A stretch of 64,000 nt of DNA from an uncultured bacterium (GTDB lineage: Bacteria; Babelota; Babeliae; Babelales; Babelaceae): NCBI GenBank assembly GCA_963717435.1, contig OY970332.1:640001-704000 (forward strand), read 5' to 3'. Shown in pieces: positions 7,357-62,898 of the stretch. The position numbers and the translations under genes are program-made. Position 1 is the stretch's first letter. Each line of letters opens with the position of its first letter. Under the pieces are notes generated by a model that was given only the letters and a program-made list of their open reading frames with translations, was not told the origin of the DNA and did no database searches.

Positions 7357-8376
7357 CTAAACTCCGGCGCTTACAACTCTATCTCTTTTATTTAAATCTT
7401 TAATTATGGTTATATTCGAAAAATTATTATTTTGAAATAGTTTGCTAACTTCTTGTGCTTGGTCATACCCGATTTCTATATAAATTTGGTTTAAGCCAGC
7501 TTTTTTTATAGAGCTCTCTGGATTTAAATAATTTTTAGCTTGTTTGATAATTTTTTCTATAATTTCAAGCCCGTTATTTTCTGCCACAAGCGCCCGTTTA
7601 TCTTCCCAATTTTTCACTTCTGGTTGTAGATTTTTAAAATCTTTCTCAGAAATGTATGGTGGATTCGCGACAATTAAATCGAACCCATTTTCTACGAAGT
7701 CTTGTTGCAAACGGGAGTTAATGTTTTGGTTTAAGTTTGTTTGAAAATTGTTTTTTTCTCCCGCTCGCCCCCAGGCTTCGCTGAAGCTACGCCGGGCATG
7801 GCCGAGTGATGTATCGCCTGTCCACCAAAACCTTGGTGAAGGTGGGAGGGGTGTTGTCGGGTTTAAGTTTTGATACAAATCAGACAAAATAAACTCCGCG
7901 TTAGAAATTTTGTTCAAGATTTTGTTCTTATTTGCCAAGTCAATACAATTTTGTGAGATATCTATCCCGTAAACAAAACTGTTGGGAAAATTTTTCGCCA
8001 GTGCAAGTGCAATACAGCCAGATCCTGAACACAAGTCTAAGATTTTAAAACTACTTTTTTTATATTTTTCCAAGCTATCTATTAAATCGCCAACCCATTC
8101 TTCAGTTTCGGGCCTTGGTATTAAAACCGGGGGTTTAACTAAGATATCTAAATCTAAGAATGGGACAGATTCGAGCAAATACTGCAATGGGTAGTGCTGC
8201 TTGGCTTTTTCTATAAATAAATTTAATTTATCCTGCTGCTCTTTGGTTAACTCTAGATTTTCATGGGCAACAAGATCAGCTTCAGTCTTGCCCGTAATTT
8301 TTTCAATAACCCACCAAGCTTGTTGAGTTCCCCCAAAAATTTGTTCAAGATTTTTAACTAAATTTATAATTTTCAT
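7357..8376 (-). CDS. prmC: Release factor glutamine methyltransferase with an in-frame repeat-derived insertion
   Basis: PLQY, LIPRPETE, LDLCSGSG, NPPY, EIG motifs; likely start ATG 8376. Confidence 0.95.
   Translation of the reverse strand: MKIINLVKNLEQIFGGTQQAWWVIEKITGKTEADLVAHENLELTKEQQDKLNLFIEKAKQHYPLQYLLESVPFLDLDILVKPPVLIPRPETEEWVGDLIDSLEKYKKSSFKILDLCSGSGCIALALAKNFPNSFVYGIDISQNCIDLANKNKILNKISNAEFILSDLYQNLNPTTPLPPSPRFWWTGDTSLGHARRSFSEAWGRAGEKNNFQTNLNQNINSRLQQDFVENGFDLIVANPPYISEKDFKNLQPEVKNWEDKRALVAENNGLEIIEKIIKQAKNYLNPESSIKKAGLNQIYIEIGYDQAQEVSKLFQNNNFSNITIIKDLNKRDRVVSAGV
7707..7855 (+). repeat. Composite palindromic element A (7761-7855) with two nested B units (7771-7801 reverse, 7817-7846 forward) and an inverted remnant at 7707-7716, inside prmC
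   Basis: CCGCTCGCCC[CCAGGCTTCGCTGAAGCTACGCCGGGCATGG]CCGAGTGATGTATCG[CCTGTCCACCAAAACCTTGGTGAAGGTGGG]AGGGGTG; matches the copies at 18948, 27835, 36908 and 62817. Confidence 0.85.
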
Positions 8377-8489
8377 AAGTCTAATATAGTTTCTAATAAA
8401 TAATAAATTACAAATTATACCCTTTTTACTAAACAAACAACTTTTGTTATTATAATCATTAAGTTAAATAATAAAAACTAAGGACTCAG

Positions 8490-9110
8490 ATGAAATTTAA
8501 ATATAACTTATTTATTCTAACTCTTATAGTTAGCAATTATTGTGCAGCGTTTTCTCCCAATCTTGAATCGTGGGAAAATCTATTTAAAGAGCATGAAAAG
8601 GCTTTTAAAGAATTAGAGCCATATGCTAAAGATATTAAGGTTAAAATTACCCATGAGACTCATGGAAACGTTGATATAGAAAACGTATATCATACCTACC
8701 CTTCTTCTGAAGCAATTTTTGCTTTGATGACCTATGAAACAGTTTATAAGAAATTATGTAATAGGATTTATACCAATGCTTGGCTTAAAGGTATAGGGTT
8801 AGGCTTTTTAACAGCTATATTAAAAACGGCTTTAACAAAATATAAAAATGGAAATTTGGGGAAACAAGGGCCATTTGATGCTGACATTTTGATAGCGACA
8901 GGATTGGCTTCAATAGCTATCATAGGTCACGAAAACATGACAAATCCTAAAATTGCCTACTTTTATCCTGATGTAGTGGTAAAACAATCTAATATTTTTT
9001 CCGACCCAGTTGAAAATATTGGACGTACTTTTACGCTATTTGGTCTTGCGGAATTAAGTTATTTCCTAGCATCATTTTCTATATTTATAATTGATCAAAA
9101 GTTAAAATAG
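8490..9110 (+). CDS. Hypothetical secreted/membrane protein
   Basis: 206 aa, signal peptide, AAGGA RBS, hydrophobic segments. Confidence 0.7.
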   Translation: MKFKYNLFILTLIVSNYCAAFSPNLESWENLFKEHEKAFKELEPYAKDIKVKITHETHGNVDIENVYHTYPSSEAIFALMTYETVYKKLCNRIYTNAWLKGIGLGFLTAILKTALTKYKNGNLGKQGPFDADILIATGLASIAIIGHENMTNPKIAYFYPDVVVKQSNIFSDPVENIGRTFTLFGLAELSYFLASFSIFIIDQKLK

Positions 9111-9974
9111 TTCGGTAACATAGTTTTTAGGGTCAAACAGGGCTATTTGATCGACAGCTTCCCCAAAAGAGATATAAGCCACAGGGATGCCAAGTTCTTG
9201 CGTTATGGCAAAAACGATGCCCCCTTTTCCGGTGCCGTCCAATTTGGTCAAAACTATCCCGTCAAGATTTGTGCTTTCGTGGAAAATTTTAGCCTGTTCG
9301 AACGAATTTTGTCCGAGCATACTGTCGACGGTCAAAAGGGTGGAGACTTTCTTGTCGGGCAAATTTTTGCTTATTACGTTTTTTATTTTTTCAAGCTCTT
9401 TCATGAGATTTACTTTTGTCTGTAATCTGCCGGCTGTGTCGATTATTAAAATATCGTAGTTTTCAGCTTTATATTTCTGGCAGCCAGCAAATACTACAGC
9501 TGCAGGATCTTGTCCCTGTTTGCCCGTAACTATATCGATTTTTAAATTTTGGGCCCATTTTTCAAGCTGTTCAGTAGCGGCGGCTCTGAAAGTATCAGCA
9601 GCTACCAGCAAAACTTTCTTGTTCTGATTAACAAATCTATTTGCTAATTTACTTACAAAAGTTGTTTTGCCGCTGCCATTAATCCCAACCATTAGGTAAA
9701 CTTGTGTATTTTCTTGATATACTTTTGCTTGTAATATATTTAATAATATTTTTTGTAGCTCTGTTTGCAGCTCCTGTCCATTAGAGATTTTAGACTCTCT
9801 TAATTTCTTAATAATATTTTTTGATGTTGCGGCTCCCAAGTCCGACTTAATTAATATATCTTGAAGTTCAGAAAGAGTATTTTCGTCAATATTATTTTTT
9901 GAAAATATACCAGAAATCTTGCTTGTTACACTCTCATATATTTTTGCAAGTTTGTTTTTTAAGAACCCAAACAT
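9102..9974 (-). CDS. ftsY: SRP receptor FtsY (NG domain only)
   Basis: GINGSGKTT, DTFRAAA, DTAGR, TKLDGTGKGG. Confidence 0.97.
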   Translation of the reverse strand: MFGFLKNKLAKIYESVTSKISGIFSKNNIDENTLSELQDILIKSDLGAATSKNIIKKLRESKISNGQELQTELQKILLNILQAKVYQENTQVYLMVGINGSGKTTFVSKLANRFVNQNKKVLLVAADTFRAAATEQLEKWAQNLKIDIVTGKQGQDPAAVVFAGCQKYKAENYDILIIDTAGRLQTKVNLMKELEKIKNVISKNLPDKKVSTLLTVDSMLGQNSFEQAKIFHESTNLDGIVLTKLDGTGKGGIVFAITQELGIPVAYISFGEAVDQIALFDPKNYVTELF

Positions 9975-9992
9975 AATTTTTCCTAAAAATAT

Positions 9993-10595
9993 TTATAAGA
10001 AGTTGGTATAATTGCCCACTCTTTGTAAAAAGAGCTTAAGTCTACGATAATCGTTTCCTGTTAAAAGTGAATAGCTGGATGTAAAATTTGCAAGTTTTTC
10101 TGTAGTTAGCAGCTTGTTTTCAGCCATGTTTTTAAGTATGGCAAGTAATAGCTCATCAACGTTAATTATATTATTTGAAAGACCAAAAAGAACATGTAAG
10201 TACTGCTCGCTATTAAAAAATTTAATATATTCTGTGTTTGAGGCAAAACTTACAAAACTGTGAATCTTTGGTGGCTCAGGGGGTAGCTGATAAAATAATA
10301 CCCCAGATTCTTCATAACCCAAGCACAAGCATGAAAAAGTTGTCTTTAGAAATTCAAATATTTGTGGTTGTTCTCGTTTTAGATCTTCTTCTGTTTTTTG
10401 ATAAGCAAAAGCTTTTCTTGATTCATCTATAGATCCCGTTTGAATTTCGTGAACCACAGCATAAAGCACTCTGTTATTGCTCTCTATTTTAACCAGTGAG
10501 CCAAATTTTGGTGGAACGTCCCACTGCCAGCTTTGTCCCACAAAAGAATGTAGCGAGCTTTCAAGAATTTCACCAAAGTACTTCTTGTTGTTCAT
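9993..10595 (-). CDS. Stand-alone HAS-barrel domain protein
   Basis: 'PKFGSLVK...YAVV..I.T.SID..R...E...REQPQIFEFL.T...PP.PP.IH...DYRRL' pattern recalled from HAS-barrel proteins. Confidence 0.7.
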   Translation of the reverse strand: MNNKKYFGEILESSLHSFVGQSWQWDVPPKFGSLVKIESNNRVLYAVVHEIQTGSIDESRKAFAYQKTEEDLKREQPQIFEFLKTTFSCLCLGYEESGVLFYQLPPEPPKIHSFVSFASNTEYIKFFNSEQYLHVLFGLSNNIINVDELLLAILKNMAENKLLTTEKLANFTSSYSLLTGNDYRRLKLFLQRVGNYTNFL

Positions 10596-11256
10596 AGTGA
10601 CTTTCGTTTAGTTCGTTCGATTCGTTTAAAAATTCAAATTTCTTTAAATAACTTTTTCTATGAATAAAACTTTCACCGTTAAGCTCTAAAGTTTGACCGT
10701 GAAGTTTGGTGCTGTATCCCTTATGTTGTCCCATATAGTACCCGGGTATAATATGATCCAGTCGTTGCATGATTTTGTCTCTTGTTACTTTGGCCACAAT
10801 CGACGCGGCTGCTATGGAGCTTGAATATTGTTCGCCAAAAGGGAAATGTATCACCGCTATATTATCAATTTTGAGGGGCATCGCATCTACAAGTACAAGT
10901 TTCGGGGCTGGCGCAACTGCAATTAACTGCATTAACGAGCGCTTCATGGCCCTTAAAGTGGCCTGATATATATTTATTTCATCGATTAGCCTATGGGTGA
11001 CAATAGCAGTAGAATACCAACTGTTTTTTACGATCCACTTATAGCCATCGAGCAGTTCATCTTGGTCCAAAAGCTTTGAATCTTTTAACTTATTACTCTT
11101 TTTTCCAGGGTGAAGAATTACTGATGCCGTAACCAACGGCCCACAGAGACATCCACGACCAACTTCATCAATTCCAGCAACGAGTTCATTTTTGGACCAA
11201 CTATCTATCTCGTAAAAATTTTTTGCTATTCGTACAGATCGTCTGGCACGTATCAT
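10570..11256 (-). CDS. rnhB: Ribonuclease HII
   Basis: GIDEVGRG, DSK, SIAAASIVAKVTRD, HKGY, HRKS. Confidence 0.96.
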   Translation of the reverse strand: MIRARRSVRIAKNFYEIDSWSKNELVAGIDEVGRGCLCGPLVTASVILHPGKKSNKLKDSKLLDQDELLDGYKWIVKNSWYSTAIVTHRLIDEINIYQATLRAMKRSLMQLIAVAPAPKLVLVDAMPLKIDNIAVIHFPFGEQYSSSIAAASIVAKVTRDKIMQRLDHIIPGYYMGQHKGYSTKLHGQTLELNGESFIHRKSYLKKFEFLNESNELNESHYEQQEVLW

Positions 11257-11271
11257 GCGCTATGTTTCCAT

Positions 11272-11299
11272 TTGACATTAATATTTTTTTGTATACAAT
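11272..11299 (+). promoter_or_regulatory. Sigma70-like promoter
   Basis: TTGACA-16 nt-TACAAT upstream of the 11366 regulator. Confidence 0.55.
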
Positions 11300-11365
11300 C
11301 AGAATTATTAGTAAGATAATTGTTAGAATACTAACACAAATTTCATTCTAAGGTAAGGAGATATT

Positions 11366-12037: not shown

Positions 12038-12206
12038 TTTTTGAGAAATTAGTGTTGATTAGAGTATATTTTTCCAATAATTTTGGTAGAATATACTCTA
12101 ATTAGTTTAAATAATTAATTTAAAGAGTTTTTGAAGTACTAAATAAAATAAATAGTTTATTTTATAGTGTTTTAACACTTCCAGTTAGTATAAAGGATTT
12201 ACTACT

Positions 12207-13773: not shown

Positions 13774-13793
13774 TATAATAATTTTTAGATTTA

Positions 13794-13829
13794 GGCCCCG
13801 ACATTTAAACGATAAATGTCGGGGCTTTT
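13794..13829 (+). terminator. Intrinsic terminator
   Basis: GGCCCCGACATTTA-aacga-TAAATGTCGGGGCT followed by TTT. Confidence 0.85.
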
Positions 13830-14594: not shown

Positions 14595-14634
14595 TGCTGT
14601 TTTTTAATAATCATCAAGTTAAAATTATATTTTA

Positions 14635-14670
14635 GGCCCTGTTATTTAACAGTAAATGACGGGGCTTTTT
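14635..14670 (+). terminator. Intrinsic terminator homologous to the one at 13794
   Basis: GGCCCTGTTATTTA-acag-TAAATGACGGGGCT followed by TTTT. Confidence 0.8.
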
Positions 14671-18065: not shown

Positions 18066-19694
18066 TTACTTTTTCATGACATCGGGAACTTCTAGCCCCA
18101 TCTGTTTTAATATATACGGGGCAATATCAGAGAGTTCGTGCAGATTATTTAAGTCTATTTTTTTATTTTCTAAGTTTTTATTTAAAACCAAGAAATAAAC
18201 AGGGTCGGTATTATGGCTCGTTCTTGGCTGATTTGTCTCTTTGTCCCACATATATTCAGCGTTGCCATGATCGCCAGTTAAATAAATTGTCCCATTTAGT
18301 TCCAAAACAATTTTTTTGTATAACTTTTCTAACTCTAAGTCTAATATTTTTATTGCTTTTACAGTTGCTTCAAAGTTGCCAGAATGGCCAACCATGTCTG
18401 CATTTGCATAATTAATTAAATAAAAATCTTGTGGGTCTTTATCAAGAGAGTTTAAAACCGTGTCTGTTATAGCTGGCGCCGACATTTGCGGCAAATTTAT
18501 ATACTGTTTTTTGGGTATAGATGGGATCAAGATTCTTGTTTCACAAGTTCTAACTTTTTCTTGTCCGCCATTAAAAAAGTAAGTTACATGAGCATATTTT
18601 TCTGTTTCTGCGATAGCAAACATGCAAATATTATTTTGTTCTAAGATATCAAAAAAAGTTTCAGGAACTATATTTTTTTTAACTAACGGGATAGTTTCCA
18701 AATCTTGCTGGTATATTATTCCAGTGACAACAAATGCAAAATCTATTTTTTTTGTTTTGAATTCTTTAAAATTTGGGTCTATAAGCGCCCGTGTTAACTG
18801 TCGTGCCCTATCTGCTCTGATATTAAAAAATATTAATGCATCGCCAGATTTGATTTCGCAGTTTTCTATTAATCTTGTTGGCGGAATAAATTCGTCGGTT
18901 ATATTTTGTGAGTAGTAGTAATCAAGCGCCTGTTCCCACCCCGCATACCCTTCGATATGCCCTGTCGGGCTATTCAGGGCGAGCGGGATTGAGTCTTTTT
19001 TTTGCGCACTTTCTTCTTGAGAATTATTTTTATTCGCTCGCCCTTCTGCGCCTGTGAGCACGTCATAACTTCGTTCTGTTCTTTCCCAATTCTTGTCTCG
19101 ATCCATAGCATAAAACCTGCCATGAATTGAGCCAAGTTTGCCGCAACCTGTTTCTTTAAATACTTTATCTAAATTTTCTAAATATTTACTTGCTGATTTT
19201 GGTGGCGTATCCCGCCCGTCAAGAAACGCATGGACAATAATATTTTTTATTTTATGTTCACAGGCCATTTTTATAAGCGCATATAAAACCATCTCATGAC
19301 TGTGAACGCCCGCGTCTGAAAGCAGACCCATCAGGTGTAAAGTTTTGCCAGTTTTTGAAAAATCATCAAACAGTTTTATTAGTTCTGGGTTTTTATAAAA
19401 CTTACCAGAATTTATCTCTTCTATTAACTTTGTTACTGCCTGTTTTATTATTCTTCCTGCTCCAATTGTAAGATGCCCAACCTCTGAGTTGCCCATCATG
19501 CCGTCAAGTAGCCCTACAGCTTTTCCTGAAGCTTGCAATATGGTATTTGGGTATAGTTTTAACCAGCTTTCAAAATTACGGGGCTCGGCGGCTAAAATTG
19601 CATTATGATCTTTGTCTTTTCTGTAGCCAAAACCATCAAGAATTATAAGAGCAGTTACTTTTTTATCGATTTTATTAGTATTTTTGTTTTGCAT
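18066..19694 (-). CDS. gpmI: 2,3-BPG-independent phosphoglycerate mutase with an in-frame repeat-derived insertion
   Basis: LIILDGFG, MGNSEVGH, LDGRD, GRFYAMDRD, ETEKYAHVT, DMVGH, DHGN. Confidence 0.97.
   Translation of the reverse strand: MQNKNTNKIDKKVTALIILDGFGYRKDKDHNAILAAEPRNFESWLKLYPNTILQASGKAVGLLDGMMGNSEVGHLTIGAGRIIKQAVTKLIEEINSGKFYKNPELIKLFDDFSKTGKTLHLMGLLSDAGVHSHEMVLYALIKMACEHKIKNIIVHAFLDGRDTPPKSASKYLENLDKVFKETGCGKLGSIHGRFYAMDRDKNWERTERSYDVLTGAEGRANKNNSQEESAQKKDSIPLALNSPTGHIEGYAGWEQALDYYYSQNITDEFIPPTRLIENCEIKSGDALIFFNIRADRARQLTRALIDPNFKEFKTKKIDFAFVVTGIIYQQDLETIPLVKKNIVPETFFDILEQNNICMFAIAETEKYAHVTYFFNGGQEKVRTCETRILIPSIPKKQYINLPQMSAPAITDTVLNSLDKDPQDFYLINYANADMVGHSGNFEATVKAIKILDLELEKLYKKIVLELNGTIYLTGDHGNAEYMWDKETNQPRTSHNTDPVYFLVLNKNLENKKIDLNNLHELSDIAPYILKQMGLEVPDVMKK
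18948..19045 (-). repeat. Element A (18948-18986, reverse) plus inverted partial copy (19034-19045) inside gpmI
   Basis: Reverse complement reads CCGCTCGCCCTGAATAGCCCGACAGGGCATATCGAAGGG; TCGCTCGCCCT lies about 47 bp away in the opposite orientation. Confidence 0.8.
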
Positions 19695-22430: not shown

Positions 22431-22460
22431 CCTGCCCTCCGGAGTCTTGGCGCAGGAGGG
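22431..22460 (+). repeat. Free-standing element B
   Basis: CCTG-CCCTCC-GGAGTCTTGGCGCA-GGAGGG (4+6+14+6). Confidence 0.75.
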
Positions 22461-26971: not shown

Positions 26972-28480
26972 ATGAAAAAAATATTTAAAGTTGCCTGTCA
27001 CACGGATAACGTGGGGGCAGGCACAACATTTGTTGCAATAAACGGAACAAAAGAAAACGGGAATATTTATATTCCCGTTGCTATTGAAAAGGGTGCCACA
27101 AAAATTGTTGTTGAATCTGGAAGTGAGATTCCTGAAAACATTCTTGAGTTAATTAAAAAATCTGGGGTTTTGTTTGAATTTGTAGAAAACTCTCGAAAAG
27201 CTTTGGCTGAAATCAGTGCCCGCGAATATAACTATCCTGCAAAAAAACTTAAAATTGTTGGTATTACGGGAACCAAAGGCAAAACGACAACAACTTTTTT
27301 AACGGAATTTATTTTAAGATCTTCTGGTTATAAAACTGCGCTATTGAGCACAGTTAAAAATATTATTCTGGGAGTAGAATATCCAACAAAACTAACCACT
27401 TGTCAGCCCGATTATCTTAATAATTTTTTACAAGAATGTGTTGATGCCGGTGTTGAAATTGTTGTTATGGAAGTCGCTGCTCAGGCATTTTCGCTTTATA
27501 GAGTTCATGGTATTGATTTTGAGATTGGCGTGTTTACCAATTTTAGCCAAGAACATGCAGAGTTTTACAGTTCAATGGACCAGTATTTTGCTGCAAAAGC
27601 GAAAATTATTGAGCATCTAAAGCCCGGCGCGCCATTAATAATTAACTCTGATGATTCTAAAGTTGCGACTTTAAAAAATAATTATAGTAACTGCTTTGAT
27701 TTTTCTTTAAGCCCCGATTCTTGTTCTAAACTATCTGCAAAAATAATTAAGTCTGATTTGTCCGGTTTGGAGTTGGAAATACTTGCTACCCCGATACATG
27801 CCAATTGTGTTGGATGTGATTGCGCATCTCGAGACCGCTCGTCCCGAGTATTTTTCGAAAGCGAAGCTGAGAAAAAAGTATCGAGGGATGGCGTCAAAAT
27901 AACCTCGCCGCTAGTTGGCAAATTTAACGCCCAAAATATTCTTGCAGCAACAAGTATATGTTTAAATTTAGGCTTAAATTTTGAGCAGATTAAATTGGGC
28001 ATAAAAAACTTTTCTCGCGTTTCAGGAAGACTTGAAAAATTTATTATAAAAAATGGCGCGACTGCGATTATCGACTACGCCCATAACCCAGCATCAATTG
28101 AGGCGGTTTTGTTGGCGCTAAGACCATTTTCAAAGCATTTGATAGTTCTTACAGGTGCCGGAGGTGATCGGGATAACACCAAGAGATCTGTAATGGGAAA
28201 AATATCTTCTGAAATAGCTGATATTTTAATTTTAACTTCTGATAATCCAAGATCTGAAGACCCAGAAAAAATTATAGATCAGATTATGCTTGGGGTTTCG
28301 CATGAAAATATTAAAAAAGTTTATCGTGAAACTGATCGTGAAAAAGCTATTAAACTAGCATATTCTCTTTCTGGCCCTGAAAGTACAATAGTTTTGCTTG
28401 GCAAGGGTCCTGATGAGTACCAGATTATTGGAAACACAACTTACCCATTTAGCGAGACAAAAATACTTGAGTCTTTGTAA
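26972..28480 (+). CDS. murE: UDP-MurNAc-tripeptide synthetase (mDAP-type DNPR) with an in-frame repeat-derived insertion
   Basis: GITGTKGKTT, MEV, DYAHNP, GGDRD, SDNPRSE. Confidence 0.95.
   Translation: MKKIFKVACHTDNVGAGTTFVAINGTKENGNIYIPVAIEKGATKIVVESGSEIPENILELIKKSGVLFEFVENSRKALAEISAREYNYPAKKLKIVGITGTKGKTTTTFLTEFILRSSGYKTALLSTVKNIILGVEYPTKLTTCQPDYLNNFLQECVDAGVEIVVMEVAAQAFSLYRVHGIDFEIGVFTNFSQEHAEFYSSMDQYFAAKAKIIEHLKPGAPLIINSDDSKVATLKNNYSNCFDFSLSPDSCSKLSAKIIKSDLSGLELEILATPIHANCVGCDCASRDRSSRVFFESEAEKKVSRDGVKITSPLVGKFNAQNILAATSICLNLGLNFEQIKLGIKNFSRVSGRLEKFIIKNGATAIIDYAHNPASIEAVLLALRPFSKHLIVLTGAGGDRDNTKRSVMGKISSEIADILILTSDNPRSEDPEKIIDQIMLGVSHENIKKVYRETDREKAIKLAYSLSGPESTIVLLGKGPDEYQIIGNTTYPFSETKILESL
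27789..27893 (+). repeat. Element A (27835-27893) preceded by a degenerate inverted copy (27789-27835) inside murE
   Basis: CCGCTCGTCCCGAGTA-TTTTTC...GAAAAAA-GTATCGAGGGATGGCG; the upstream stretch reverse-complements to GTCTCGAG...TGTATCGGGG. Confidence 0.82.
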
Positions 28481-36850: not shown

Positions 36851-36954
36851 CCGTTCGTCCCCAAGCTTCCCGATTCTCAAGACTACCCAAGACAGGTCGC
36901 TTAAAGCCCGCTCATCCCGAGTGTTTTTTCGCAGAAAAAATGTATCGAGGGGTG
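36851..36954 (+). repeat. Intergenic cluster: truncated A carrying B-within-B, then a complete element A (36908-36954)
   Basis: CCGTTCGTCC-CCAAGCT[TCCCGATTCTCAAGACTACCCAAGACAGG]TCGCTTAAAGC-CCGCTCATCCCGAGTGTTTTTTCGCAGAAAAAATGTATCGAGGGGTG. Confidence 0.8.
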
Positions 36955-36971: not shown

Positions 36972-37292
36972 CTAGCCGTTCTTATTTCCGTTGCCCTTAC
37001 CACGAGTTTTGCCCGGGTTATTTCTGTCTCGTCTATTATTCTCGTGTCCTGGAAGACCGTGTCCCTTGTTTGTTATTGTTCCTGAGTGATCTTTCGGGTT
37101 TGTGTGCTCGTATGCGCGATGGTTTGAATTTGCGGGATTAATATCTTTCCCGTGATGATTATTATGTTCGTGCTGATGTCCATTATTATTGTTATTATTG
37201 CTGTTATTATCGGTATTATTGTTATTTTCTCGTCCGTAATTATGGCCAACTTTTTTATCAAATTTCATAAACTCTCCGTTTTTGTTATCCAT
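36972..37292 (-). CDS. Low-complexity Asn/His/Gly-rich protein
   Basis: 106-aa ORF overlapping the stop of the upstream gene. Confidence 0.5.
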   Translation of the reverse strand: MDNKNGEFMKFDKKVGHNYGRENNNNTDNNSNNNNNNGHQHEHNNHHGKDINPANSNHRAYEHTNPKDHSGTITNKGHGLPGHENNRRDRNNPGKTRGKGNGNKNG

Positions 37293-38744: not shown

Positions 38745-40412
38745 ATGAAAAAGAGTGGTGTTTTTGTCTTAACAATGTTGCTAATTAACTTTGGGAACAT
38801 TTTTTCAGTCAAATATTCTATTACCAACGTCACAAAAGAGAAATTGTACGTGGAAATTTTTTCTGGCGTAGGGGAGCAGGCCCAATCTGTTATACCGGCC
38901 ATAACTACAGCTGGCTTAGCTGCGATTTCTATGCACGATTGTTTAAATGGTTTTTCTATAACTTTAGAATCAGGGCAGTCTTACAGGGTTGATGCTCCAT
39001 GTTGTATAAGTAATATAAAGGTTAGTAGATCAGATAGTTTTGATAAGGTTATTGCAACTAGATACGGGGATTACTGTGCATCAAATGATGTTTACATTCA
39101 TAAGTCTGATATAGATAGTTTTTATTTAGATTCAAATCATGACGCAAGTGATTATGAAAAAAGGACTGCGGGTATTGCGGAAATTTCAAAATCGTCAGCA
39201 GCAGATTTGGCAGTTATGGCCTCACAAATCAAAAGTGGGGTTATAGATTTTAAATTTATAGCCAACAAGCCAGTAGGTACCGGTGGATTAACCGATGCCC
39301 TTATTGAATCTATAAAAAAATCTAATATTGAGGCTAAAGCAAAAGACAAAGAAGGTAATAATTTACTTCAACAATTGATTATAGCAAATCCTGTTTTTGC
39401 AGGAATGGGGCCTGATGTGCTTTCAAATGCTGAGAATTATGTTTCAGCAGGCCTTTTGAAACAAAATAATAAAAATGGGGATAATGCTGTTGCTACAGCA
39501 GCAAAAATTGATAGTAGAGATTGGGCATTGTTTCTGGTTAGGTATCATGGAAATGTTTTAATTTCAAATAATAATAAGCAAACTCCATTACATCTTGCTG
39601 CATTAAAAAATGATATTTACTTGATACAGTTATTCATAAAAGCCGCTACGGTTACTCCAGGCATAAAGGAGCAAGCTATGAATCGGTATATAAATCAACG
39701 TGATTCCTCAGGCAAAACTGCGTTTGATTTGATAACTGATATAAACATATTATCAAGTTTAATTATGGAGCCAATCAGAACCTTGAATTATAAGCCTGAA
39801 ATTACCGATGTAAACAGAGTAGTTTCACAAAATGGAGACACTTATTTAATTGCGGCTTTAAAAAATAATTTATCTAATTTTGCAACCAAATTACTTTCTA
39901 TGGGGGCAGATCCTAATATTAAAAATGGTGACGGTAGGACAGCGATTTTTTATGTCTTAATGAATATTAAATCAGGCGAAGGAATACCTTTGTTAAAATC
40001 ATTAATTGAAAAAAAAGTTGACTTGAATATTGTAGATAAATTTGGAATTACGCCATTAATAGTTGCAACTAACGCAAAAGATATTAAATATATTGATCTT
40101 TTGCTTTCAAATGGAGTCAATATAAATCAGCAGGATGCTGGCTCTAAGTTAATAACTCCAACTATGCGCGTAGAGTCTGTTACACCGCTTTTAATTGCTG
40201 TAAATTCTGGTGATAATAAGCTTGTAAGATATCTAATATCCAAGGGCGCTGATGTAAATTTAAAATATCCAGTTCAATTTGGAAAAAGCAAAGAAAAAGT
40301 GATGGTGAGTTTGGATCAGATAATCGATATAGCTAAAATCAAGGGTGTAAATATTAGGGAGTTAAAACCTAAACAGGAGCCTAAGCAACCAGAGAAGCCA
40401 GCTAATAGTTAG
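38745..40412 (+). CDS. Secreted ankyrin-repeat protein (paralog 1)
   Basis: Signal peptide, Cys-containing N-domain, QTPLHLAA, GITPLIVA, TPLLIAV...GADVN. Confidence 0.9.
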   Translation: MKKSGVFVLTMLLINFGNIFSVKYSITNVTKEKLYVEIFSGVGEQAQSVIPAITTAGLAAISMHDCLNGFSITLESGQSYRVDAPCCISNIKVSRSDSFDKVIATRYGDYCASNDVYIHKSDIDSFYLDSNHDASDYEKRTAGIAEISKSSAADLAVMASQIKSGVIDFKFIANKPVGTGGLTDALIESIKKSNIEAKAKDKEGNNLLQQLIIANPVFAGMGPDVLSNAENYVSAGLLKQNNKNGDNAVATAAKIDSRDWALFLVRYHGNVLISNNNKQTPLHLAALKNDIYLIQLFIKAATVTPGIKEQAMNRYINQRDSSGKTAFDLITDINILSSLIMEPIRTLNYKPEITDVNRVVSQNGDTYLIAALKNNLSNFATKLLSMGADPNIKNGDGRTAIFYVLMNIKSGEGIPLLKSLIEKKVDLNIVDKFGITPLIVATNAKDIKYIDLLLSNGVNINQQDAGSKLITPTMRVESVTPLLIAVNSGDNKLVRYLISKGADVNLKYPVQFGKSKEKVMVSLDQIIDIAKIKGVNIRELKPKQEPKQPEKPANS

Positions 40413-40520
40413 TTTTTTTACGCTATTATTTGGAATTTTAATTGCTTGGCCCAAGCTAAAAAATATAGGGTTTGAAAGAATTAGAAAATTGTGTGCTTAT
40501 AATAATTTTATGGAGGATTT

Positions 40521-42185
40521 ATGAAGAAGATAGGTGTTTTTGCTTTGACGATGTTGCTAATTAATTTTGGGAATATTTTTTCGGTCAAATATTCTATTAC
40601 CAATATCACAAAAGAGAAATTGTATGTAAAGATTTCTCCTAGTTTAGGAGAACGTGGTCAATCCGTTATACCGGCAGTAACTACTGCAGGTTTATCTGCA
40701 ATCGCGATGCACGATTGTTTAAGTGGCCTTTCTATAACTTTAGAATCAGGGCAATCTTACAGAGTTGATGAACCATGTTGTATGAGTAAAATAAAGGTTA
40801 GTAGGTCAGATAGCTTTGACAATGTTCTTACAACCAGAGACGGGGACTATTGTGCATCAGACGATGTTTACATTCATAAGTCTGATACAGATAGTTTTTA
40901 TATAGATTCGAATCGTGATCTAAATGACTATGAAAAAAGAACTGCGGCTATTGCAGGAATTTCAAAAGCAGTGACAGCAGATTTGGCAGTTATAGATTCG
41001 CAAATCAAGAGCGGAGTTATAGATTTAAAATTTATAGCCAATAAGCCAGTAGGTACCGGTGGATTAACCGATGCTATTATTGAATCTATCAAAAAATCTA
41101 ATATTGACGCTAAAAAACAAGACAAAGACGGGAACAATTTACTTCAGCAATTGATTATAGCAAATCCTGTTTTTGCAGGGATAGGGCCTGATGTGCTTTC
41201 AAATGGTGAAAATTATGTTTCAGCAGGTCTTTTGGAAGAAAAGAATAAAAATGGAGATACGCCGCTTGCTACAGCAGCAAAAATTGATAGTAGAGAGTGG
41301 GCATTGTTTCTGGTTAGGCACCATGCAAATGTTTTAACTTCAGATAATAATAAGCAAACTCCATTACATATTGCTGCATTAAAAAATGATATTTACTTAA
41401 TACAGTTATTTATAAAAGCGGCTAAAATGTTAGGCGTGAGCGATGCAGCTATCACCCAGTACCTAAATCAAGCCGATTCTTCAGGTAAAACTGCATTTGA
41501 TTTGATAACCGACCTAAAGATATTATCAACTTTGATAACTGAGCCGCTTAGAACCCTGTATTTTAAGCCTGAAATTACTGATATAAACAGAGTAGTTTCA
41601 AAAAATGGAGACACTTATTTAATGGCGGCTATAAAAAATAATCTAACTGATCTTGCGACCAAGTTACTTTCTATGGGTGCTAATCCCAGCACTAAAAATA
41701 CTGATGGTAGGACAGCGATTTTTTATGTTTTAATGAATATGACATCAGACGAAGGAATGCCATTGTTGAAATTATTAATTGAAAAAAAAGTTGACTTAAA
41801 TCTTTTAGATAAATTTGGAGTTACGCCATTAATAGTTGCAACTAACGCAAAAGATAATAAATATATTGATCTTTTGGTTTCAAATGGAGCCAATCTAAAT
41901 CAACAAGATCCTGCTTCTAAATTAATAACTCCGGTCATGCGAGTAGAGTCTGTTACACCACTTTTAATTGCTGTAAATTCTGGTGATAATAAGCTTGTAA
42001 GATATCTGATATCCAAGGGAGCTGATGTAAATTTAAAATATCCAGTTCAATTTGCAAAAAACAAAGAAAAACTGATATTGAATTTGGAGCAGATAATCGG
42101 CGCGGCTCAAATTAAGGGTGTAATCATTAGGGAGTTAAAACCTAAACAGGAGCTTAAGCAACCAGAGAAGCCAGCTAATAGTTAG
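40521..42185 (+). CDS. Secreted ankyrin-repeat protein (paralog 2)
   Basis: Collinear and highly similar to 38745-40412. Confidence 0.9.
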   Translation: MKKIGVFALTMLLINFGNIFSVKYSITNITKEKLYVKISPSLGERGQSVIPAVTTAGLSAIAMHDCLSGLSITLESGQSYRVDEPCCMSKIKVSRSDSFDNVLTTRDGDYCASDDVYIHKSDTDSFYIDSNRDLNDYEKRTAAIAGISKAVTADLAVIDSQIKSGVIDLKFIANKPVGTGGLTDAIIESIKKSNIDAKKQDKDGNNLLQQLIIANPVFAGIGPDVLSNGENYVSAGLLEEKNKNGDTPLATAAKIDSREWALFLVRHHANVLTSDNNKQTPLHIAALKNDIYLIQLFIKAAKMLGVSDAAITQYLNQADSSGKTAFDLITDLKILSTLITEPLRTLYFKPEITDINRVVSKNGDTYLMAAIKNNLTDLATKLLSMGANPSTKNTDGRTAIFYVLMNMTSDEGMPLLKLLIEKKVDLNLLDKFGVTPLIVATNAKDNKYIDLLVSNGANLNQQDPASKLITPVMRVESVTPLLIAVNSGDNKLVRYLISKGADVNLKYPVQFAKNKEKLILNLEQIIGAAQIKGVIIRELKPKQELKQPEKPANS

Positions 42186-53470: not shown

Positions 53471-53482
53471 ATAATAAAAAAT

Positions 53483-57834: not shown

Positions 57835-57841
57835 ATAATTA

Positions 57842-57867
57842 ATGGGGCCGTAATTAATCGGCCCCAT
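57842..57867 (+). terminator. Terminator-like hairpin
   Basis: ATGGGGCCG...CGGCCCCAT. Confidence 0.65.
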
Positions 57868-57961
57868 AGAATTTTGATAGATTTTTAATTTACAATTTTT
57901 TATTCCAGAAAAATTAAATTTTCTGTACAATTTGATTAGTAAATTTTTTTAGGGGCTTCTT

Positions 57962-59815
57962 ATGAATTTTGGAAATAAAATTATTAGGTTTTTAGAGGTT
58001 GTTGCCAATAAGCAGCTAAGAACTAAAATCATACCGGTGGATTTTAAGGCTCCATGGTGGAAAGTTATAACGGATCAAAAACTTTATCTTTCCATAATGC
58101 TTATAAGTTTCTTTTTGGTTGATGTTTTCAAAACGCTTTTTCCTATGTTAATAGCGATAGTTTTTGAAAACCCCAAAGTTGAATATTTGGGTATGCTTAT
58201 TTTAGGTTGGATTGTAGTTGTTGCTATCGAGCATATAAAGAAAATATCGCACGCAGCTCTTCTTGCACAATCTGTCCAAAGCGTACATTATCATGCGCAC
58301 AAAATGTTTTTATTAGTGGACCCGATATATCACACTTATAGAGCCACCGGGTCTATTCTTGGCAAAATAAACCGAGCATCTGTTTCTTATGAAGATTTTA
58401 TAGAAGCATGGGATGATATAATACCGACAATTATAAGTGCAGTAACTGCAACTGTCTCCATGGCATTTTTTGACAGTAGTTTGAGTTTATATGCAGGAGC
58501 AACACTTTTATTTTTGGGGGTATTTAGCTCAATAATTATGACCTACGCAACGTTTGAATTTGAAACTGTTGTTAATCGTGCCGATGACAACCAAAAAGCG
58601 GTCAGCGTTGAAAATCTTACTCAGGTGAATTTAATACGTTCAGTTTTTGCAAGTTCTTTGATGGTTTCAAAACTTAAAGATACGCATAAAACTGTTTTAA
58701 AAGCAGATATGTCTTTAAGATTGGTTTATATTTTATTGCGAACATTTTTTTATATGTCTTATGTGGCAGTTTTGGCTATCATGGGTGTCTATGTAATCAG
58801 ACTAGTTAATGCGGGCACTATGACGGCTGTGTTAGCTACGTCGTTAATTTTGACTTATATTCGCGGAACTGAAGATGTGCTGAGAATATCAAGCCCCATA
58901 AGATATTTTATGAGAGCTTATACCAGAATTACAGATTTTTTTGATTTTGCAAAAAAGTTTGGCAGACAAACTTATCCTGTTTTATCCGTTGGGACCGTAA
59001 AAGAAGCTATTGTGCATGAGATAAAATCAAATAAAGAAATCGTTTTAGACGCCTCAAGCATATCGTTTGATTATTTTTCTGGGGCGAGAATATTTGATGA
59101 TCATAATTTTAAATTAACTATAAATATTGATCAGAAAAATAAACTTTGTGGAATTATCGGGCCATCGGGCGCTGGTAAGACAACATTTTTTTCAATATTT
59201 GGTGGTCAATTGAGACCTGCATTAGGAACTGTAAAACTTAATGGCATAGATATTTATTCGATAGATGACGACTCTCGTCGAGATCTTATAGCCTTGCAGG
59301 GACAGATAGCAACCACTTTGCGAGGTACGCTAAAATATAATCTATTATTCGGTATCCCAAAAGACATCGCATGTTACCCAGATGATTTATTAATAAATAT
59401 TTTAGAGGCGGTAGGTTTATGGGCTATTTTCAAAAATAAAGACGGCCTAAATACAATGATAGGTGAGGGTGGCTTTGGTTTATCAGGTGGACAAAAACAA
59501 CGCCTAAATTTTGCTAATTTGTATTTAAGAGCGCAATTCTATAGACCAATTTTAATTTTGATTGATGAGCCAACAAGTAGTTTGGATGAGATTAGCGAGA
59601 AGGCTATCACAGAGATGATTTCAGAACTTGCAAAGACTGCAGTCACGCTTGTAATTGCTCACAGGATTAAGACTCTTGAAGATGCAATTGGGATTCTTGA
59701 TTTCTCTTTGTTGTCTTCAGAAAAAGATATGAAATTTTATAGCAAGCAAGAGCTTCAATCTCACTCGCCGTATTATCAAAAATTGCTCAGAGGGGAATAT
59801 TCTATTGAAGAGTAA
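57962..59815 (+). CDS. ABC exporter, fused permease + ATPase
   Basis: TM domain, GPSGAGKT, LSGGQ, LIDEPTS, AHR. Confidence 0.93.
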   Translation: MNFGNKIIRFLEVVANKQLRTKIIPVDFKAPWWKVITDQKLYLSIMLISFFLVDVFKTLFPMLIAIVFENPKVEYLGMLILGWIVVVAIEHIKKISHAALLAQSVQSVHYHAHKMFLLVDPIYHTYRATGSILGKINRASVSYEDFIEAWDDIIPTIISAVTATVSMAFFDSSLSLYAGATLLFLGVFSSIIMTYATFEFETVVNRADDNQKAVSVENLTQVNLIRSVFASSLMVSKLKDTHKTVLKADMSLRLVYILLRTFFYMSYVAVLAIMGVYVIRLVNAGTMTAVLATSLILTYIRGTEDVLRISSPIRYFMRAYTRITDFFDFAKKFGRQTYPVLSVGTVKEAIVHEIKSNKEIVLDASSISFDYFSGARIFDDHNFKLTINIDQKNKLCGIIGPSGAGKTTFFSIFGGQLRPALGTVKLNGIDIYSIDDDSRRDLIALQGQIATTLRGTLKYNLLFGIPKDIACYPDDLLINILEAVGLWAIFKNKDGLNTMIGEGGFGLSGGQKQRLNFANLYLRAQFYRPILILIDEPTSSLDEISEKAITEMISELAKTAVTLVIAHRIKTLEDAIGILDFSLLSSEKDMKFYSKQELQSHSPYYQKLLRGEYSIEE

Positions 59816-59848
59816 TAGAAGATAGTAATTTTGCTATTTAAGACAACT

Positions 59849-60841
59849 TTAGAGACTCTTTAGAGAATTTATTGTTATATTCTTTTCAAAATCAAGTAAG
59901 TTTACAAGTAATTTATCTATTAATTCTTCGTCATCTATTTCACTTAAATATTTTTGTGTTAAATATTTAATATTCTCTGGATTAGCTCTTTCTAATAAAA
60001 TTTCTGCGATTTTTATTAGATTATTTATATCTTCTTCTTTCATACAATCAATATTGTCAATATATTCAATAAGTTTAAATAGAACTAGGTCCACAGCATT
60101 TTTTATGCAGGCTTTATCTTCCAAGCTAAATATATTGTCTGCGTTGGGATTATAAGTTTTCAGTTCTTGATTTACATCGGCACCATTTTCTACCAAAAGT
60201 TTCACTGTTTCAAGACAGGGTATATAGGGCTCTAAAGCCAGAGATAACGGTGTGCTGAAATTGATTGATATATGTGATGTTTTAATAAAAGGTCGGTCTA
60301 GGCGTACTATAGCAATATCTAATTCATGTACTTTGGCGTACTCGTTTATAAATAAATTTAACTTATCAAGTTGTGGCAAAACGTCTTTTAAAAAATTAAT
60401 ATCATTGAGACAAACTGCCAAATGCAGGCCGTTGATTAAATATCTCAGGTGCTCTTTTTCGATTTCTTCCGTTTCAAATGGGAAATCGTTGGGGAGTGAT
60501 CCATAATCAATCGCAAGAAATTCAACATCAATAAATCCAACAAAAATCGAAAAATCTGGCACTTTTTTGTCTATTTTTTCTAAGAGATAATCGTTAACTT
60601 TTTTTGTATAGATTTTTTTACCAATTTCATGAGCAAACTTACTTGTGCCGTTGACTTGATCTAGGTATCTTATTGGATCTCTGGTATATACCGAATTTTT
60701 CTCATTTGAGGTTTTTTGTGATTTTGAATCGACATTTTGGCTGAAAAAACCGCTATCAGGTCCATTTCTTTTCATAGAAAGACTGTTTTCAGTGAATAAG
60801 CTTGATATTAAAATTGTTAAGAAGAGATTCGAAAATTTCAT
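59849..60841 (-). CDS. Secreted protein with degenerate ankyrin repeats
   Basis: Signal peptide, GLHLAV, TPLSLA...VKLLVENGADVN. Confidence 0.75.
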   Translation of the reverse strand: MKFSNLFLTILISSLFTENSLSMKRNGPDSGFFSQNVDSKSQKTSNEKNSVYTRDPIRYLDQVNGTSKFAHEIGKKIYTKKVNDYLLEKIDKKVPDFSIFVGFIDVEFLAIDYGSLPNDFPFETEEIEKEHLRYLINGLHLAVCLNDINFLKDVLPQLDKLNLFINEYAKVHELDIAIVRLDRPFIKTSHISINFSTPLSLALEPYIPCLETVKLLVENGADVNQELKTYNPNADNIFSLEDKACIKNAVDLVLFKLIEYIDNIDCMKEEDINNLIKIAEILLERANPENIKYLTQKYLSEIDDEELIDKLLVNLLDFEKNITINSLKSL

Positions 60842-60992
60842 AAACCGTCCACTATTGTTATTTTTAATTGATTTTTAAACTATATTTGTATTATACAGTA
60901 AGTAAAAATTGTTTTCAAAAGGGCTTAAACTTCGGGTCTATAAAATAGAATTTGGGGGATATTGGGATTGACTGCGTGTGGTCTAGCTCAGA

Positions 60993-61030
60993 AGACTGGC
61001 CTGCCATTCATTTCTGAAGGAAATGAATGG
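60993..61030 (-). repeat. tRNA 3'-trailer hairpin repeat, copy 1
   Basis: AGACTGGCCTGCCATTCATTTCTGAAGGAAATGAATGG (plus strand). Confidence 0.9.
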
Positions 61031-61119
61031 AGGAGAGAGAGGGATTCGAACCCTCGATCCCGCTCTCTCGAGATAACGGTTTTCAAGACCGCCGCTTTCG
61101 ACCGCTCAGCCATCTCTCC
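61028..61119 (-). tRNA. tRNA-Ser(TGA)
   Basis: GGAGAGA/TCTCTCC acceptor stem, anticodon loop CTTGAAA, long variable arm, GGTTCGAATCC, encoded CCA. Confidence 0.95.
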
Positions 61120-61131
61120 GCGCAGAATTAT

Positions 61132-61159
61132 ATTATAGCTGAGCTTTATTTAAAATCAA
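61132..61159 (-). promoter_or_regulatory. Sigma70-like promoter of tRNA-Ser(TGA)
   Basis: Minus strand TTGATT-16 nt-TATAAT just upstream of the tRNA. Confidence 0.6.
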
Positions 61160-61265
61160 CTGAAAATGGCTATAAAATTAATATTTTTAATGTTTTTTAA
61201 ATTTAATCTAGGTTTGAGACGGATTTGTTTGGTATTGAGATGGCCTGCATGCGGCGCAGATTCAT

Positions 61266-61304
61266 GAGACTGGCCTGCCATTCATTTCTGAAAGAAATGA
61301 ATGG
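61266..61304 (-). repeat. tRNA 3'-trailer hairpin repeat, copy 2
   Basis: GAGACTGGCCTGCCATTCATTTCTGAAAGAAATGAATGG (plus strand). Confidence 0.9.
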
Positions 61305-61378
61305 TGCGCCCAGGAGGAGTCGAACCTCCAACCTTCAGATCCGTAGTCTGACGCTCTATCCAGTTGAGCTATGGGCGC
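61302..61378 (-). tRNA. tRNA-Arg(ACG)
   Basis: GCGCCCA/TGGGCGC acceptor stem, anticodon loop CTACGGA, GGTTCGACTCC, encoded CCA. Confidence 0.96.
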
Positions 61379-61463
61379 GATATTTTCGAATTTAAAATTT
61401 TTTAGAATTTTGCATGTACCTGAGTTTTCTGGTGAAGAATGATATCAGGTATATTCAGGCGCA

Positions 61464-61502
61464 GAGACTGGCCTGCCATTCATTTCTGAAAGAAATGAAT
61501 GG
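61464..61502 (-). repeat. tRNA 3'-trailer hairpin repeat, copy 3
   Basis: Identical to copy 2 over 39 bp. Confidence 0.9.
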
Positions 61503-61592
61503 TGGAGAGAGAGGGATTCGAACCCTCGCGCCCCGAATTACCGAGACTCTTGCTTAGCAGGCAAGCGCTTTAGACCACTCAGCCACCTCTCC
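61500..61592 (-). tRNA. tRNA-Ser(GCT)
   Basis: GGAGAGG/TCTCTCC acceptor stem, anticodon loop CTGCTAA, long variable arm, encoded CCA. Confidence 0.95.
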
Positions 61593-61668
61593 AAAAACAT
61601 ATACTGTAAATAATAAATTATTTGGCAGTTTATGCAAGTGTTTTCAGCTTATAGCGCCTGTTTTATGG

Positions 61669-62388
61669 CTAAACTTTGGGCGTAAATTTATTGATATCGT
61701 AAATATCAAGCTCTTTTTCGATCTCTTCTACTTGCTTTAAGATCCCCTCAAAGCCCTCTTTTCCGAACAGTTCATGCTCCGTATCTTCAAATATATCAGC
61801 CAGTTCTTCAAACTCTTTTATTGTTATTAGCGTTCTGAATTCTGGGAACAACTCAGTGTCTTCCCGTGTTTCATGAACCCGGTACATGATTATAAAGCTC
61901 TTAATGGCAAAAATAAGCTGCTGTTTATTTTTGGGATCAGAGATTTTGTCTTGTTGAGAAAGATTTATTATCTGGTCTGTTAAAACGCGTCCTGCTTGGT
62001 GCTGTTCGAGTAAGCTGTTAACCAGATCCAGTAATTTCCCGGCTTTTTGAAATCTTGTAAATATATACTGCTCTTCTGATTTCTCATGATAATCTTCGAT
62101 AAAGTTTCTGATTATTGAAGCAGATTTTTTTAGATTTTCTATATTAAAATTTTTATTGTTATCTAGTCTTTTAACTATTTCTTCGTAAATTAATAATACT
62201 CTGTTTAATATGCCGTGCTCGCGCATCAGGTCTTCTGTTGGCGGTATATCTTCTATAAATTCTTGTTGCGTTTTTTGAGCAGGGTTAAAATTTATTTTGT
62301 TAAACTTTAAGACAATAAATACTATTATTATTGCCGCAAAAACTATTATAAAACTTAATAGTAATTTGTTTGAAAAAATTTGGTTCAT
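61669..62388 (-). CDS. Membrane-anchored hemerythrin-like (HHE) domain protein
   Basis: LMREH, YHEKSEE..F, QH..GR, HETRED..LFP; N-terminal TM. Confidence 0.85.
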   Translation of the reverse strand: MNQIFSNKLLLSFIIVFAAIIIVFIVLKFNKINFNPAQKTQQEFIEDIPPTEDLMREHGILNRVLLIYEEIVKRLDNNKNFNIENLKKSASIIRNFIEDYHEKSEEQYIFTRFQKAGKLLDLVNSLLEQHQAGRVLTDQIINLSQQDKISDPKNKQQLIFAIKSFIIMYRVHETREDTELFPEFRTLITIKEFEELADIFEDTEHELFGKEGFEGILKQVEEIEKELDIYDINKFTPKV

Positions 62389-62517
62389 AAATACACTCCC
62401 AAAAATAATCACAAAATATATTTTTTTTTCAAATTAACATGTAGTTTAAAATTTAAGCAATTATATATTTATAATATTTTTTTAGTTATAAATTTAATTA
62501 TAATTTTGGAAGTTTTT

Positions 62518-62799
62518 ATGTCACTAATAATCGAAATAAAAGTTTTTCCCTCTTCCGGCAAACAAAAGTGGGCGCTTGAAGAATCGGGACTTATCAAGTG
62601 TTATATAAAAAGTCAGCCTGAAAAGGGCAAAGCTAACAAAGAAGTAATAGAATTTTTGTCTGAATCTTTAAAAATTCCGAAATATTTAATTACACTGGTT
62701 TCAGGATTAACTACGCCAAGAAAAAAAATAAAGATCGAATATCAATTGACCCTAGAACAACTTTTAACTAAGTTGAAACTTGATGGTAAATTAATTTAG
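62518..62799 (+). CDS. DUF167/YggU family protein
   Basis: IKV.P.S, PEKGKAN..., G.T...K; likely start 62518. Confidence 0.88.
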   Translation: MSLIIEIKVFPSSGKQKWALEESGLIKCYIKSQPEKGKANKEVIEFLSESLKIPKYLITLVSGLTTPRKKIKIEYQLTLEQLLTKLKLDGKLI

Positions 62800-62816
62800 A
62801 AAGAAAATTTCTATTC

Positions 62817-62898
62817 CCGCTCGTCCCCGTCTGCCGGGCAGGCTGAGTTTAGTATCGCCTGCGCGCCGGAGTTTTAACGTAGGCGTGAGGGATGGCGG
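62817..62898 (+). repeat. Intergenic composite element A with two nested CCTG-hairpin units
   Basis: CCGCTCGTCC[CCGTCTGCCGGGCAGG]CTGAGTTTAGTATCG[CCTGCGCGCCGGAGTTTTAACGTAGGCGTG]AGGGATGGCGG. Confidence 0.85.

Follow-up and report, generated by a model that had tools for sequence, protein, structure and literature searches.

The 64,000-nt stretch studied here (the window), which spans positions 640,001–704,000 of contig OY970332.1 from an uncultured bacterium of the family Babelaceae, carries members of two families of short dispersed hairpins, termed A and B. The host genome is assembled as a single contig of 1.198 Mb with 34.6% GC and a marker completeness of 88.8%. Comparison of the repeats and their neighbouring genes across this genome and its relatives leads us to propose, as the probable explanation, two systems that each join a small solo GIY-YIG nuclease to a hairpin of its own, with B hairpins nesting inside A hairpins. 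A preliminary description of the window had put forward non-autonomous, structure-constrained repeat families, one of which occurs at recurring fixed sites in the other, and both points are borne out genome-wide, the partner enzymes being encoded outside the window.

Element A is an oriented, bulged hairpin in which the tag CGCTCR is followed by a 4-nt stem arm, GA, a loop, TC, a GA bulge, the stem complement and a tail partly complementary to the tag, with GA pairing with TC. We found 111 structurally complete units in the genome, or 129–133 tags when nested and truncated copies are included, and A covers less than 1% of the genome. The preliminary description had staked its case on further copies and on stem covariation, and both were found: a strict A pattern gave 94 genome matches versus none in the reversed control, and the stem arms are 97% Watson–Crick paired versus 66% (maximum 73%) when arms are shuffled between copies. 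The stems TCCC/GGGA (55 units) and CCCT/AGGG (26) are followed in number by TGGT/ACCA (10), CCCT/ATGG (5), CCCC/GGGG (4) and TCCT/AGGA (2), and TGCC/GGCA and TACT/AGTA were each found once. Folding energies of 11 pieces (z from +1.4 to −2.3) were not convincingly beyond those of shuffled sequences, and the case for structure therefore rests on covariation. Because no simple A lacks an inner hairpin, and because 90 of the 111 units have B-type or C-GNA-G loops in it, the variable inner hairpin of A is probably an older B-type unit that became fixed in the loop, between a repeated TG. C-GNA-G mini-hairpins are unusually stable in DNA. The A features of the window are:

7761..7851, + strand: composite A with a CCCC/GGGG stem and two B units, in frame in prmC (which reads on the − strand)
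18947..18986, − strand: A copy with a CCCT/AGGG stem, in frame in gpmI
27835..27888, + strand: A copy with a TCCC/GGGA stem (the dominant subtype), in frame in murE
36851..36896, + strand: truncated left end of A with a degenerate reverse B-like insert (36860–36896) at site iii (defined below)
36908..36952, + strand: complete A copy with a C-GCA-G inner hairpin, intergenic
62817..62899, + strand: composite A with two B units and a tail partly complementary to the tag, intergenic

The five copies first reported at 7761, 18986 (− strand), 27835, 36908 and 62817 are all present; the in-frame placement of three of them in genes had been overlooked. A further copy with an insert had been proposed at 36851, of which the insert is real and the full copy is not: it consists of the left end of A with a degenerate, non-folding reverse B (z +1.4), followed by the complete A at 36908.

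Element B has the tag NNYG, the YG of which was built into the search definition, a 6-bp stem, in some units with a bulged T, and a loop with GNA-type motifs at its borders. The catalogue of 51 units used throughout was curated by eye from 72 regular-expression matches (12–21 in shuffled sequence) by removing 15 chance matches and 6 that were inner hairpins of A, and it omits short-loop units and several units at tRNA ends. Its 25 distinct stems pair at 87%, versus 60% (maximum 70%) with arms shuffled, in agreement with the paired but varying stems first described. The fixed CCTG tag of that description did not hold, CCTG being the commonest tag with 14 of 51 units and CGTG, TGCG, CGCG, CCCG and CTTG making up most of the remainder. 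A definition of B as CCTG plus any hairpin was also rejected, since genome-wide it showed no enrichment over other tetranucleotides. By placement, 29 units lie in A, 9 at the ends of tRNA or transfer-messenger RNA genes, 3 in another B and 10 are free, which provides the tally of free and nested copies that the preliminary description had proposed. The window contains the following B units:

7770..7801, − strand: B at site iii, with tag CCATG, stem CCCGGC and a GNA-type loop
7817..7846, + strand: B at site ii (GTATCG^AGGGG), with tag CCTG and stem TCCACC/GGTGGG
22431..22460, + strand: free B with CCTG and stem CCCTCC/GGAGGG, then a T run, between divergent genes
61000..61030, + strand: tRNA-end B, CCTG plus hairpin, whose terminal TGG complements the CCA end of a tRNA-Ser
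61274..61304, + strand: tRNA-end B at a tRNA-Arg
61472..61502, + strand: tRNA-end B at a tRNA-Ser
62826..62842, − strand: short B at site iii, CCTG CCCG GCAGA CGGG
62858..62887, + strand: B at site ii, with CCTG and stem CGCGCC/GGCGTG

The free unit at 22431 and the 30-nt units at GTATCG^AGGG (7817–7846 and 62858–62887) are as first described, and the three tRNA-end units (61000, 61274 and 61472) are newly recognised. Rfam models matched tRNAs alone in the window, and they gave no relevant match at the nuclease loci. A T run follows four free B units in the genome, and two related terminator-like hairpins in the window (13793–13828 and 14634–14668), located behind neighbouring genes, combine B-like stems (CCCGAC/GTCGGG) with AT-rich loops and T runs. 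Because all of these end in T runs, it is suggested that B-type hairpins are reused as terminators.

Small GIY-YIG genes flanked by the repeats, which the preliminary description had named among the candidates to look for, were found with one clade per repeat family, and their genomic neighbourhoods make it very probable that each family is paired with a GIY-YIG clade of its own. The genome contains five matches to PF01541, namely uvrC and four solo genes. One of the latter, at genome positions 1,066,108–1,066,392, encodes a UPF0213-like GIY-YIG protein of 94 aa, whose closest solved structures are UPF0213 proteins, and is bracketed by an inward pair of A units at 1,066,026 (+) and 1,066,467 (−), both of the TCCC subtype. 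Residues Y7, Y17 and E64 are invariant in 23 aligned homologues of this A clade and match by position the catalytic Y6, Y17 and E64 of SsnA, the Neisseria nuclease whose own hairpin is NTS (PMC11893778; here and below, statements on published systems follow the accessible portions of the cited sources). An A-type hairpin was found within 300 nt of 23 of 28 homologues from GTDB genomes (29 examined, 1 too short; both sides in 17) and of 62 of 73 metagenome homologues (80 examined, 7 too short; both sides in 39), giving 85 of 101 close homologues combined and none in the reversed control. No A flank was found at 15 distant UPF0213-like homologues or near yhbQ of E. coli, and a search for phage carriage returned 16 viral matches, all of them distant homologues and none with A flanks. 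According to record titles, the closest homologues are mostly from Babeliales or Dependentiae, and the homologues as a whole include Babeliales, Chloroflexi, Zixiibacteriota, Stygiobacter, Rhodospirillaceae and Bacteroidota. Five homologue-bearing genomes contain 17–129 dispersed A-type pattern matches versus 3–11 in controls, and among 41 related genomes A occurs in 9 of 9 with the A nuclease and in 10 of 32 without it (Fisher p 0.0003, for kin that are not independent). Four genomes (G005, G033, G034 and G040) contain 14–31 A pattern matches and no detected A-clade nuclease, and possibly hold orphaned repeat populations.

The remaining three solo genes, two intact and one truncated, form a separate clade, and each lies behind a B-type hairpin, two of them directly behind tRNA CCA ends. 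Genes of this B clade, which in the host genome include those at positions 1,023,036 and 413,544, encode about 80 aa; across relatives, B-type units lie upstream of 39 of 46 of them (control 2), with A nearby in just 2 of 46. A nucleases, B nucleases and the Ssn-type proteins flanked by NTS fall into separate groups in a quick tree search (SH-aLRT 97 for A and 96 for the B genes of Babeliales). With 104 columns this tree has low resolution; it places YhbQ on a long branch inside A and excludes 14 loci that were short or duplicate, together with roughly half of the metagenome rows. In CDD, cd10448 is the label of the Ssn clade; the candidate labels would be cd10456 for the A nuclease and cd10449 (SLX1-like) for the B nuclease. 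A tandem arrangement was seen in the Stygiobacter genome G043 (contig C2, about 77100–77950, locus L219), where three identical copies of a related GIY-YIG gene, with a 289-nt period, lie behind a tRNA gene. The tRNA 3′ half is repeated as well, with a CCTG hairpin in the T arm.

Gene-less counterparts of the A nuclease cassette are scattered through the genome: 15 of the 22 inward neighbour pairs of A are doublets of 112–199 nt that contain no gene and have the architecture of the cassette. Several inward doublets (among those at genome positions 10616, 193742, 438285, 452906, 830580 and 898065) share spacer and outer flanks with one another and with the cassette, and some may therefore have multiplied along with neighbouring sequence. 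A lone A tag in the opposite orientation at window 19034–19043, near the gpmI copy, may be the remnant of a doublet.

The presence of 29 of 51 B units within an element that covers less than 1% of the genome amounts to an approximately 70-fold enrichment, and most of this nesting falls on three sites. Site i, stem-G^AG on the 5′ arm (10 units, none in the window), and site ii, TCG^AR in the A bulge (9 units), face each other across the bulge, and site iii, CGYC^CYGAG (5–6 units, plus short ones missed by the regular expression), lies on the opposite strand within the A stem. The preliminary description had placed reverse units just after CCGCTCGYCC; the units are there (7770–7801 and 62826–62842), and their position is corrected to site iii, inside the stem. 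B units within hairpins, whether A, tRNA ends or B itself, usually sit just before AG.

Among 261 genomes of the phylum, a site-i pattern gave 63 matches in 34 genomes, which by eye comprised 59 genuine cases, 1 double and 3 chance matches (reversed control 5). Site i holds B in 33 of the 261 genomes, from 8 families, in combinations that draw on 6 or more A stems and 15 or more B stems, a variety that favours repeated targeting. In the host genome a single A site holds several B stem types, and one B stem may occupy several sites (CCCGTC at ii and iii; CCCGGC at i, ii and iii and free). Sites ii and iii are jointly filled in 8 copies here, representing at least 4 A stem subtypes, and such double loading was found in two other genomes, G163 and, in degenerate form, G116. 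At genome position 864284, a site-ii B stands alone in an A that has retained its inner hairpin. Five of the eight CCTG-hairpin places in G043 are in the A loop, across three A stems, and in other phyla this loop site is used with their own B types. Loose nested patterns searched in five relatives gave mostly noise. Nesting also involves A itself: a reversed A sits in the inner hairpin of another A in 8 copies (genome positions 44207, 291269, 622117, 810376, 815351, 1088711, 1119512 and 1135324), and because the inner unit recurs together with its flanks, this composite spreads as a unit. In the A at genome position about 622100 (−), three additional bases lie precisely at site ii, and they may have been left by the loss of a B or by a small duplication.

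Insertion of A into coding sequence is common. Of 129 placements, 33 were internal to open reading frames (ORFs), 87 intergenic, 5 near ORF starts and 4 overlapping ORF ends, with ORFs taken from a simple caller that includes a few false cases; the intragenic copies occur in both orientations and in all frames. Twenty-eight of the 33 A-containing ORFs were scanned together, with the prmC, gpmI and murE genes of the window treated apart and two doubtful ORFs omitted, and NCBIfam named 16 hosts: sufD, pgi, recR, murB, gpsA, mnmG, tkt, mnmE, wecB, a manC-like gene, asnB, valS, glmM, a glycosyltransferase gene, a nagZ-like gene and murD. In the window, the interrupted genes are:

7357..8436, − strand: prmC (release factor methyltransferase), insert of about 55 aa, absent from 23 of 23 orthologues
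18066..19694, − strand: gpmI, insert of about 28 aa, absent from 15 of 16 orthologues
26972..28480, + strand: murE, insert of about 31–35 aa, absent from 18 of 18 orthologues

The gpmI exception, in genome G006 (L148), has an A doublet of its own with a nested B in the same gpmI loop, and the two inserts in one loop may reflect shared ancestry or a hot spot. No consistent target duplication was found: direct repeats of at least 10 nt flank 7 of 92 clusters, at distances that vary, which is a weak excess over the 2–3% in controls. A repeat of 11 nt does flank the prmC copy.

A possible mechanism is suggested by SsnA, which binds one strand of its own hairpin, and solely when this is single-stranded DNA (ssDNA), cleaves a few nucleotides upstream and reduces transformation; Chenal et al. 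(2025) liken NTS-ssnA-NTS to IS200/RAYT arrangements without showing mobility (PMC11893778). We propose that A and B would each likewise be bound as ssDNA by their own nuclease, just as SsnA binds NTS, and may be mobilised when that enzyme nicks DNA that is transiently single-stranded and a hairpin is copied into the nick by host repair, without consistent target duplication. The B system would prefer junctions of existing hairpins and would therefore land repeatedly at the two G^A steps around the A bulge, at the opposite-strand stem position and in the A loop, and composites, once formed, would be copied onward as units by the A system. For the nick that admits B into A we lean modestly towards the B nuclease over the A nuclease, because SsnA cuts outside its own hairpin. 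Slx1 is an enzyme that cuts branch junctions. A more far-reaching version, which we consider possible if on balance doubtful, is that solo GIY-YIG proteins of at least two uncharacterised subfamilies mobilise their own hairpins by nick-and-copy, without a transposase, and that B is a hyperparasite writing hairpins of about 30 nt base-exactly into folded A and tRNA-gene hairpins. If true, this would offer a candidate mechanism by which proteins of intracellular bacteria acquire palindromic insertions in frame.

Several observations weigh against the proposal of two nuclease-plus-hairpin systems. No strand-joining activity is known for GIY-YIG nucleases. In the accessible account, SsnA is shown to restrict transformation, not to move DNA (PMC11893778). 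Ten genomes hold A, with up to 31 pattern matches, and no detected A nuclease. Site ii is rare elsewhere, with 5 matches to a strict pattern in 4 of 261 genomes, 2 of them by chance, and none to the site-ii pattern in five A-rich relatives; in genome G041, 0 of 9 CCTG-hairpin places fit the nested pattern, which missed the commonest A tag of that genome. A search of sequencing runs returned a best run with 0.30 of the query words (none with at least half), no RNA run, and no strain-level pair of empty and filled sites. Finally, 7 of the 10 site-i B units in the host genome have one common loop, and near-identical composites stand at genome positions 425020/461208 and 291420/1135476; many nested copies are therefore not independent events.

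This dominant site-i loop and these composite pairs, together with the A-in-A unit present eight times, fit an account in which B entered each A site once, long ago, composites then spread, also horizontally, and recombination or gene conversion swapped stems and loops, with no ongoing targeting. The joint filling of sites ii and iii in 8 copies and the free, compensated variation of stems in both families point the same way. Descent from a composite ancestor had been named as an alternative in the preliminary description, and part of it stands: copying does propagate whole composites, and where one of sites ii and iii is filled the other nearly always is too. It is probably not the sole process. 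Against it stand the identical B stem types at different sites and the different types at one site, the site-ii B at 864284 that is alone in an A keeping its inner hairpin, the many A-by-B combinations at site i in 8 families, the filling of the loop site in other phyla by their own B types, and the B units in tRNA ends and in B. We regard descent and shuffling alone as unlikely, whereas repeated targeting and composite descent probably both operate. Slightly less likely again is a host-domesticated filter, in which the main role of the nucleases would be to cleave transforming DNA close to hairpins as it enters the cell, like SsnA in Neisseria, with repeats spreading slowly by host recombination and being kept for this role or as terminators. 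Such a filter would agree with the lowered transformation by NTS-bearing DNA in the presence of SsnA (PMC11893778), with a ComEC-family gene in the genome and with the T runs after four free B units, but it leaves unexplained the in-frame insertions in core enzymes that relatives lack, the patchy presence of the nucleases and the base-exact nesting. As a secondary role, it is compatible with the two-system explanation. The preliminary description had favoured recognition by HUH/RAYT enzymes, and tag plus hairpin, inverted doublets and the lack of target duplication do resemble REP/REPIN elements moved by a RAYT or IS200-like transposase, since lost or missing from the assembly. The single-contig genome, 88.8% complete by markers, however has no match to Pfam Y1_Tnp or NCBIfam REP_Tyr_transpos, and what A brackets, in this genome as in other phyla, is a GIY-YIG gene; such a mobiliser is largely refuted and we consider it very improbable.

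Among known systems, the two nuclease-plus-hairpin systems come closest to Ssn/SRM, in which a solo GIY-YIG gene of about 90 aa also lies between inverted oriented hairpins that are dispersed genome-wide as well (PMC11893778). The A nuclease shares with this group a single small GIY-YIG domain (94 aa, PF01541) and the same catalytic positions, and is 39% identical to an NTS-flanked Ssn-type protein (L104). However, the SRM consensus matches one place in the genome, which is not A, and 0 of 60 metagenome A-clade loci, and both our nucleases group apart from the NTS-flanked clade; the closest solved structures to the A nuclease are UPF0213 proteins. About 25% of A copies are intragenic, versus 2% for NTS in N. 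meningitidis (PMC11893778), and two systems are nested here, whereas the accessible text on Ssn/SRM describes neither nesting nor mobility (PMC11893778).

With REP/REPIN-RAYT, A shares tagged hairpins, inverted doublets with variable spacers and one bracketed partner gene (10.1101/2021.07.10.451892; PMC3733652), and a few REP families have been found inserted in other palindromes (Di Nocera et al. 2013, PMC3733652). The partner here is a GIY-YIG protein, whereas that of REPs, RAYT, is an HUH tyrosine transposase. The stem of A is bulged and its tag is CGCTCR, whereas REPs have a GTAG or CGTC tag and an 8–9-bp stem (PMC3733652), and REP/REPIN elements are described as almost exclusively extragenic, in contrast to A with 33 of 129 copies inside ORFs. 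CGTC-tagged REPs, compared with A by description, have a CGTC, TGTC or CCTC tag, an 8–9-bp stem, a 4–5-nt loop and a CCA tail (PMC3733652); kinship with A is possible because A relatives in other phyla begin with TGTCA, and the A motif was not found in four supplementary files checked for this comparison.

The RPE of Rickettsia and the WPE of Wolbachia resemble A in being palindromic repeats in frame in housekeeping genes of reduced, AT-rich genomes (PMC3733652). A differs from RPE in being shorter and in having an identified partner gene. Nine A insert peptides had no match at E ≤ 5 in NCBIfam, a collection that includes RPE models. MITEs of DDE transposases have a target site duplication of fixed length, which A lacks. 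IS1397 and ISPpu10, insertion sequence (IS) elements with DDE or IS110 transposases that target REPs, are like B in using another repeat as a fixed insertion site, but they are full IS elements, whereas B is a hairpin of about 30 nt tied to a GIY-YIG clade. The A/B system is not a member of Ssn/SRM, REPIN-RAYT or RPE as these are defined. The literature search, from whose scope most subscription papers fell out, returned no account of A, of B or of the nesting; three supplement files of Chenal et al. (2025) went unsearched and its Data 5 carries no sequences, so that an A-like motif there is possible.

The nuclease-plus-hairpin kind of system was thus already published in 2025, and what is new is the existence of two distinct nuclease-linked hairpin families and their recurrent, base-exact nesting across a phylum. 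Each family has a candidate enzyme, defined sequences and exact nesting sites, which makes the proposal testable with oligonucleotides and proteins of about 80–95 aa. The Ssn concept would thereby gain two more GIY-YIG clades, as new candidate site-specific ssDNA nucleases, and the findings show a source of 30–55-aa loop insertions in core enzymes.

Two further features of the window lie outside these systems. An ORF of 106 aa with a low-complexity sequence rich in Asn, His and Gly (36972–37292, − strand) adjoins the A copy at 36908, and window positions 38745–42185 contain two tandem paralogous ORFs of about 555 aa whose DNA is about 82% identical.

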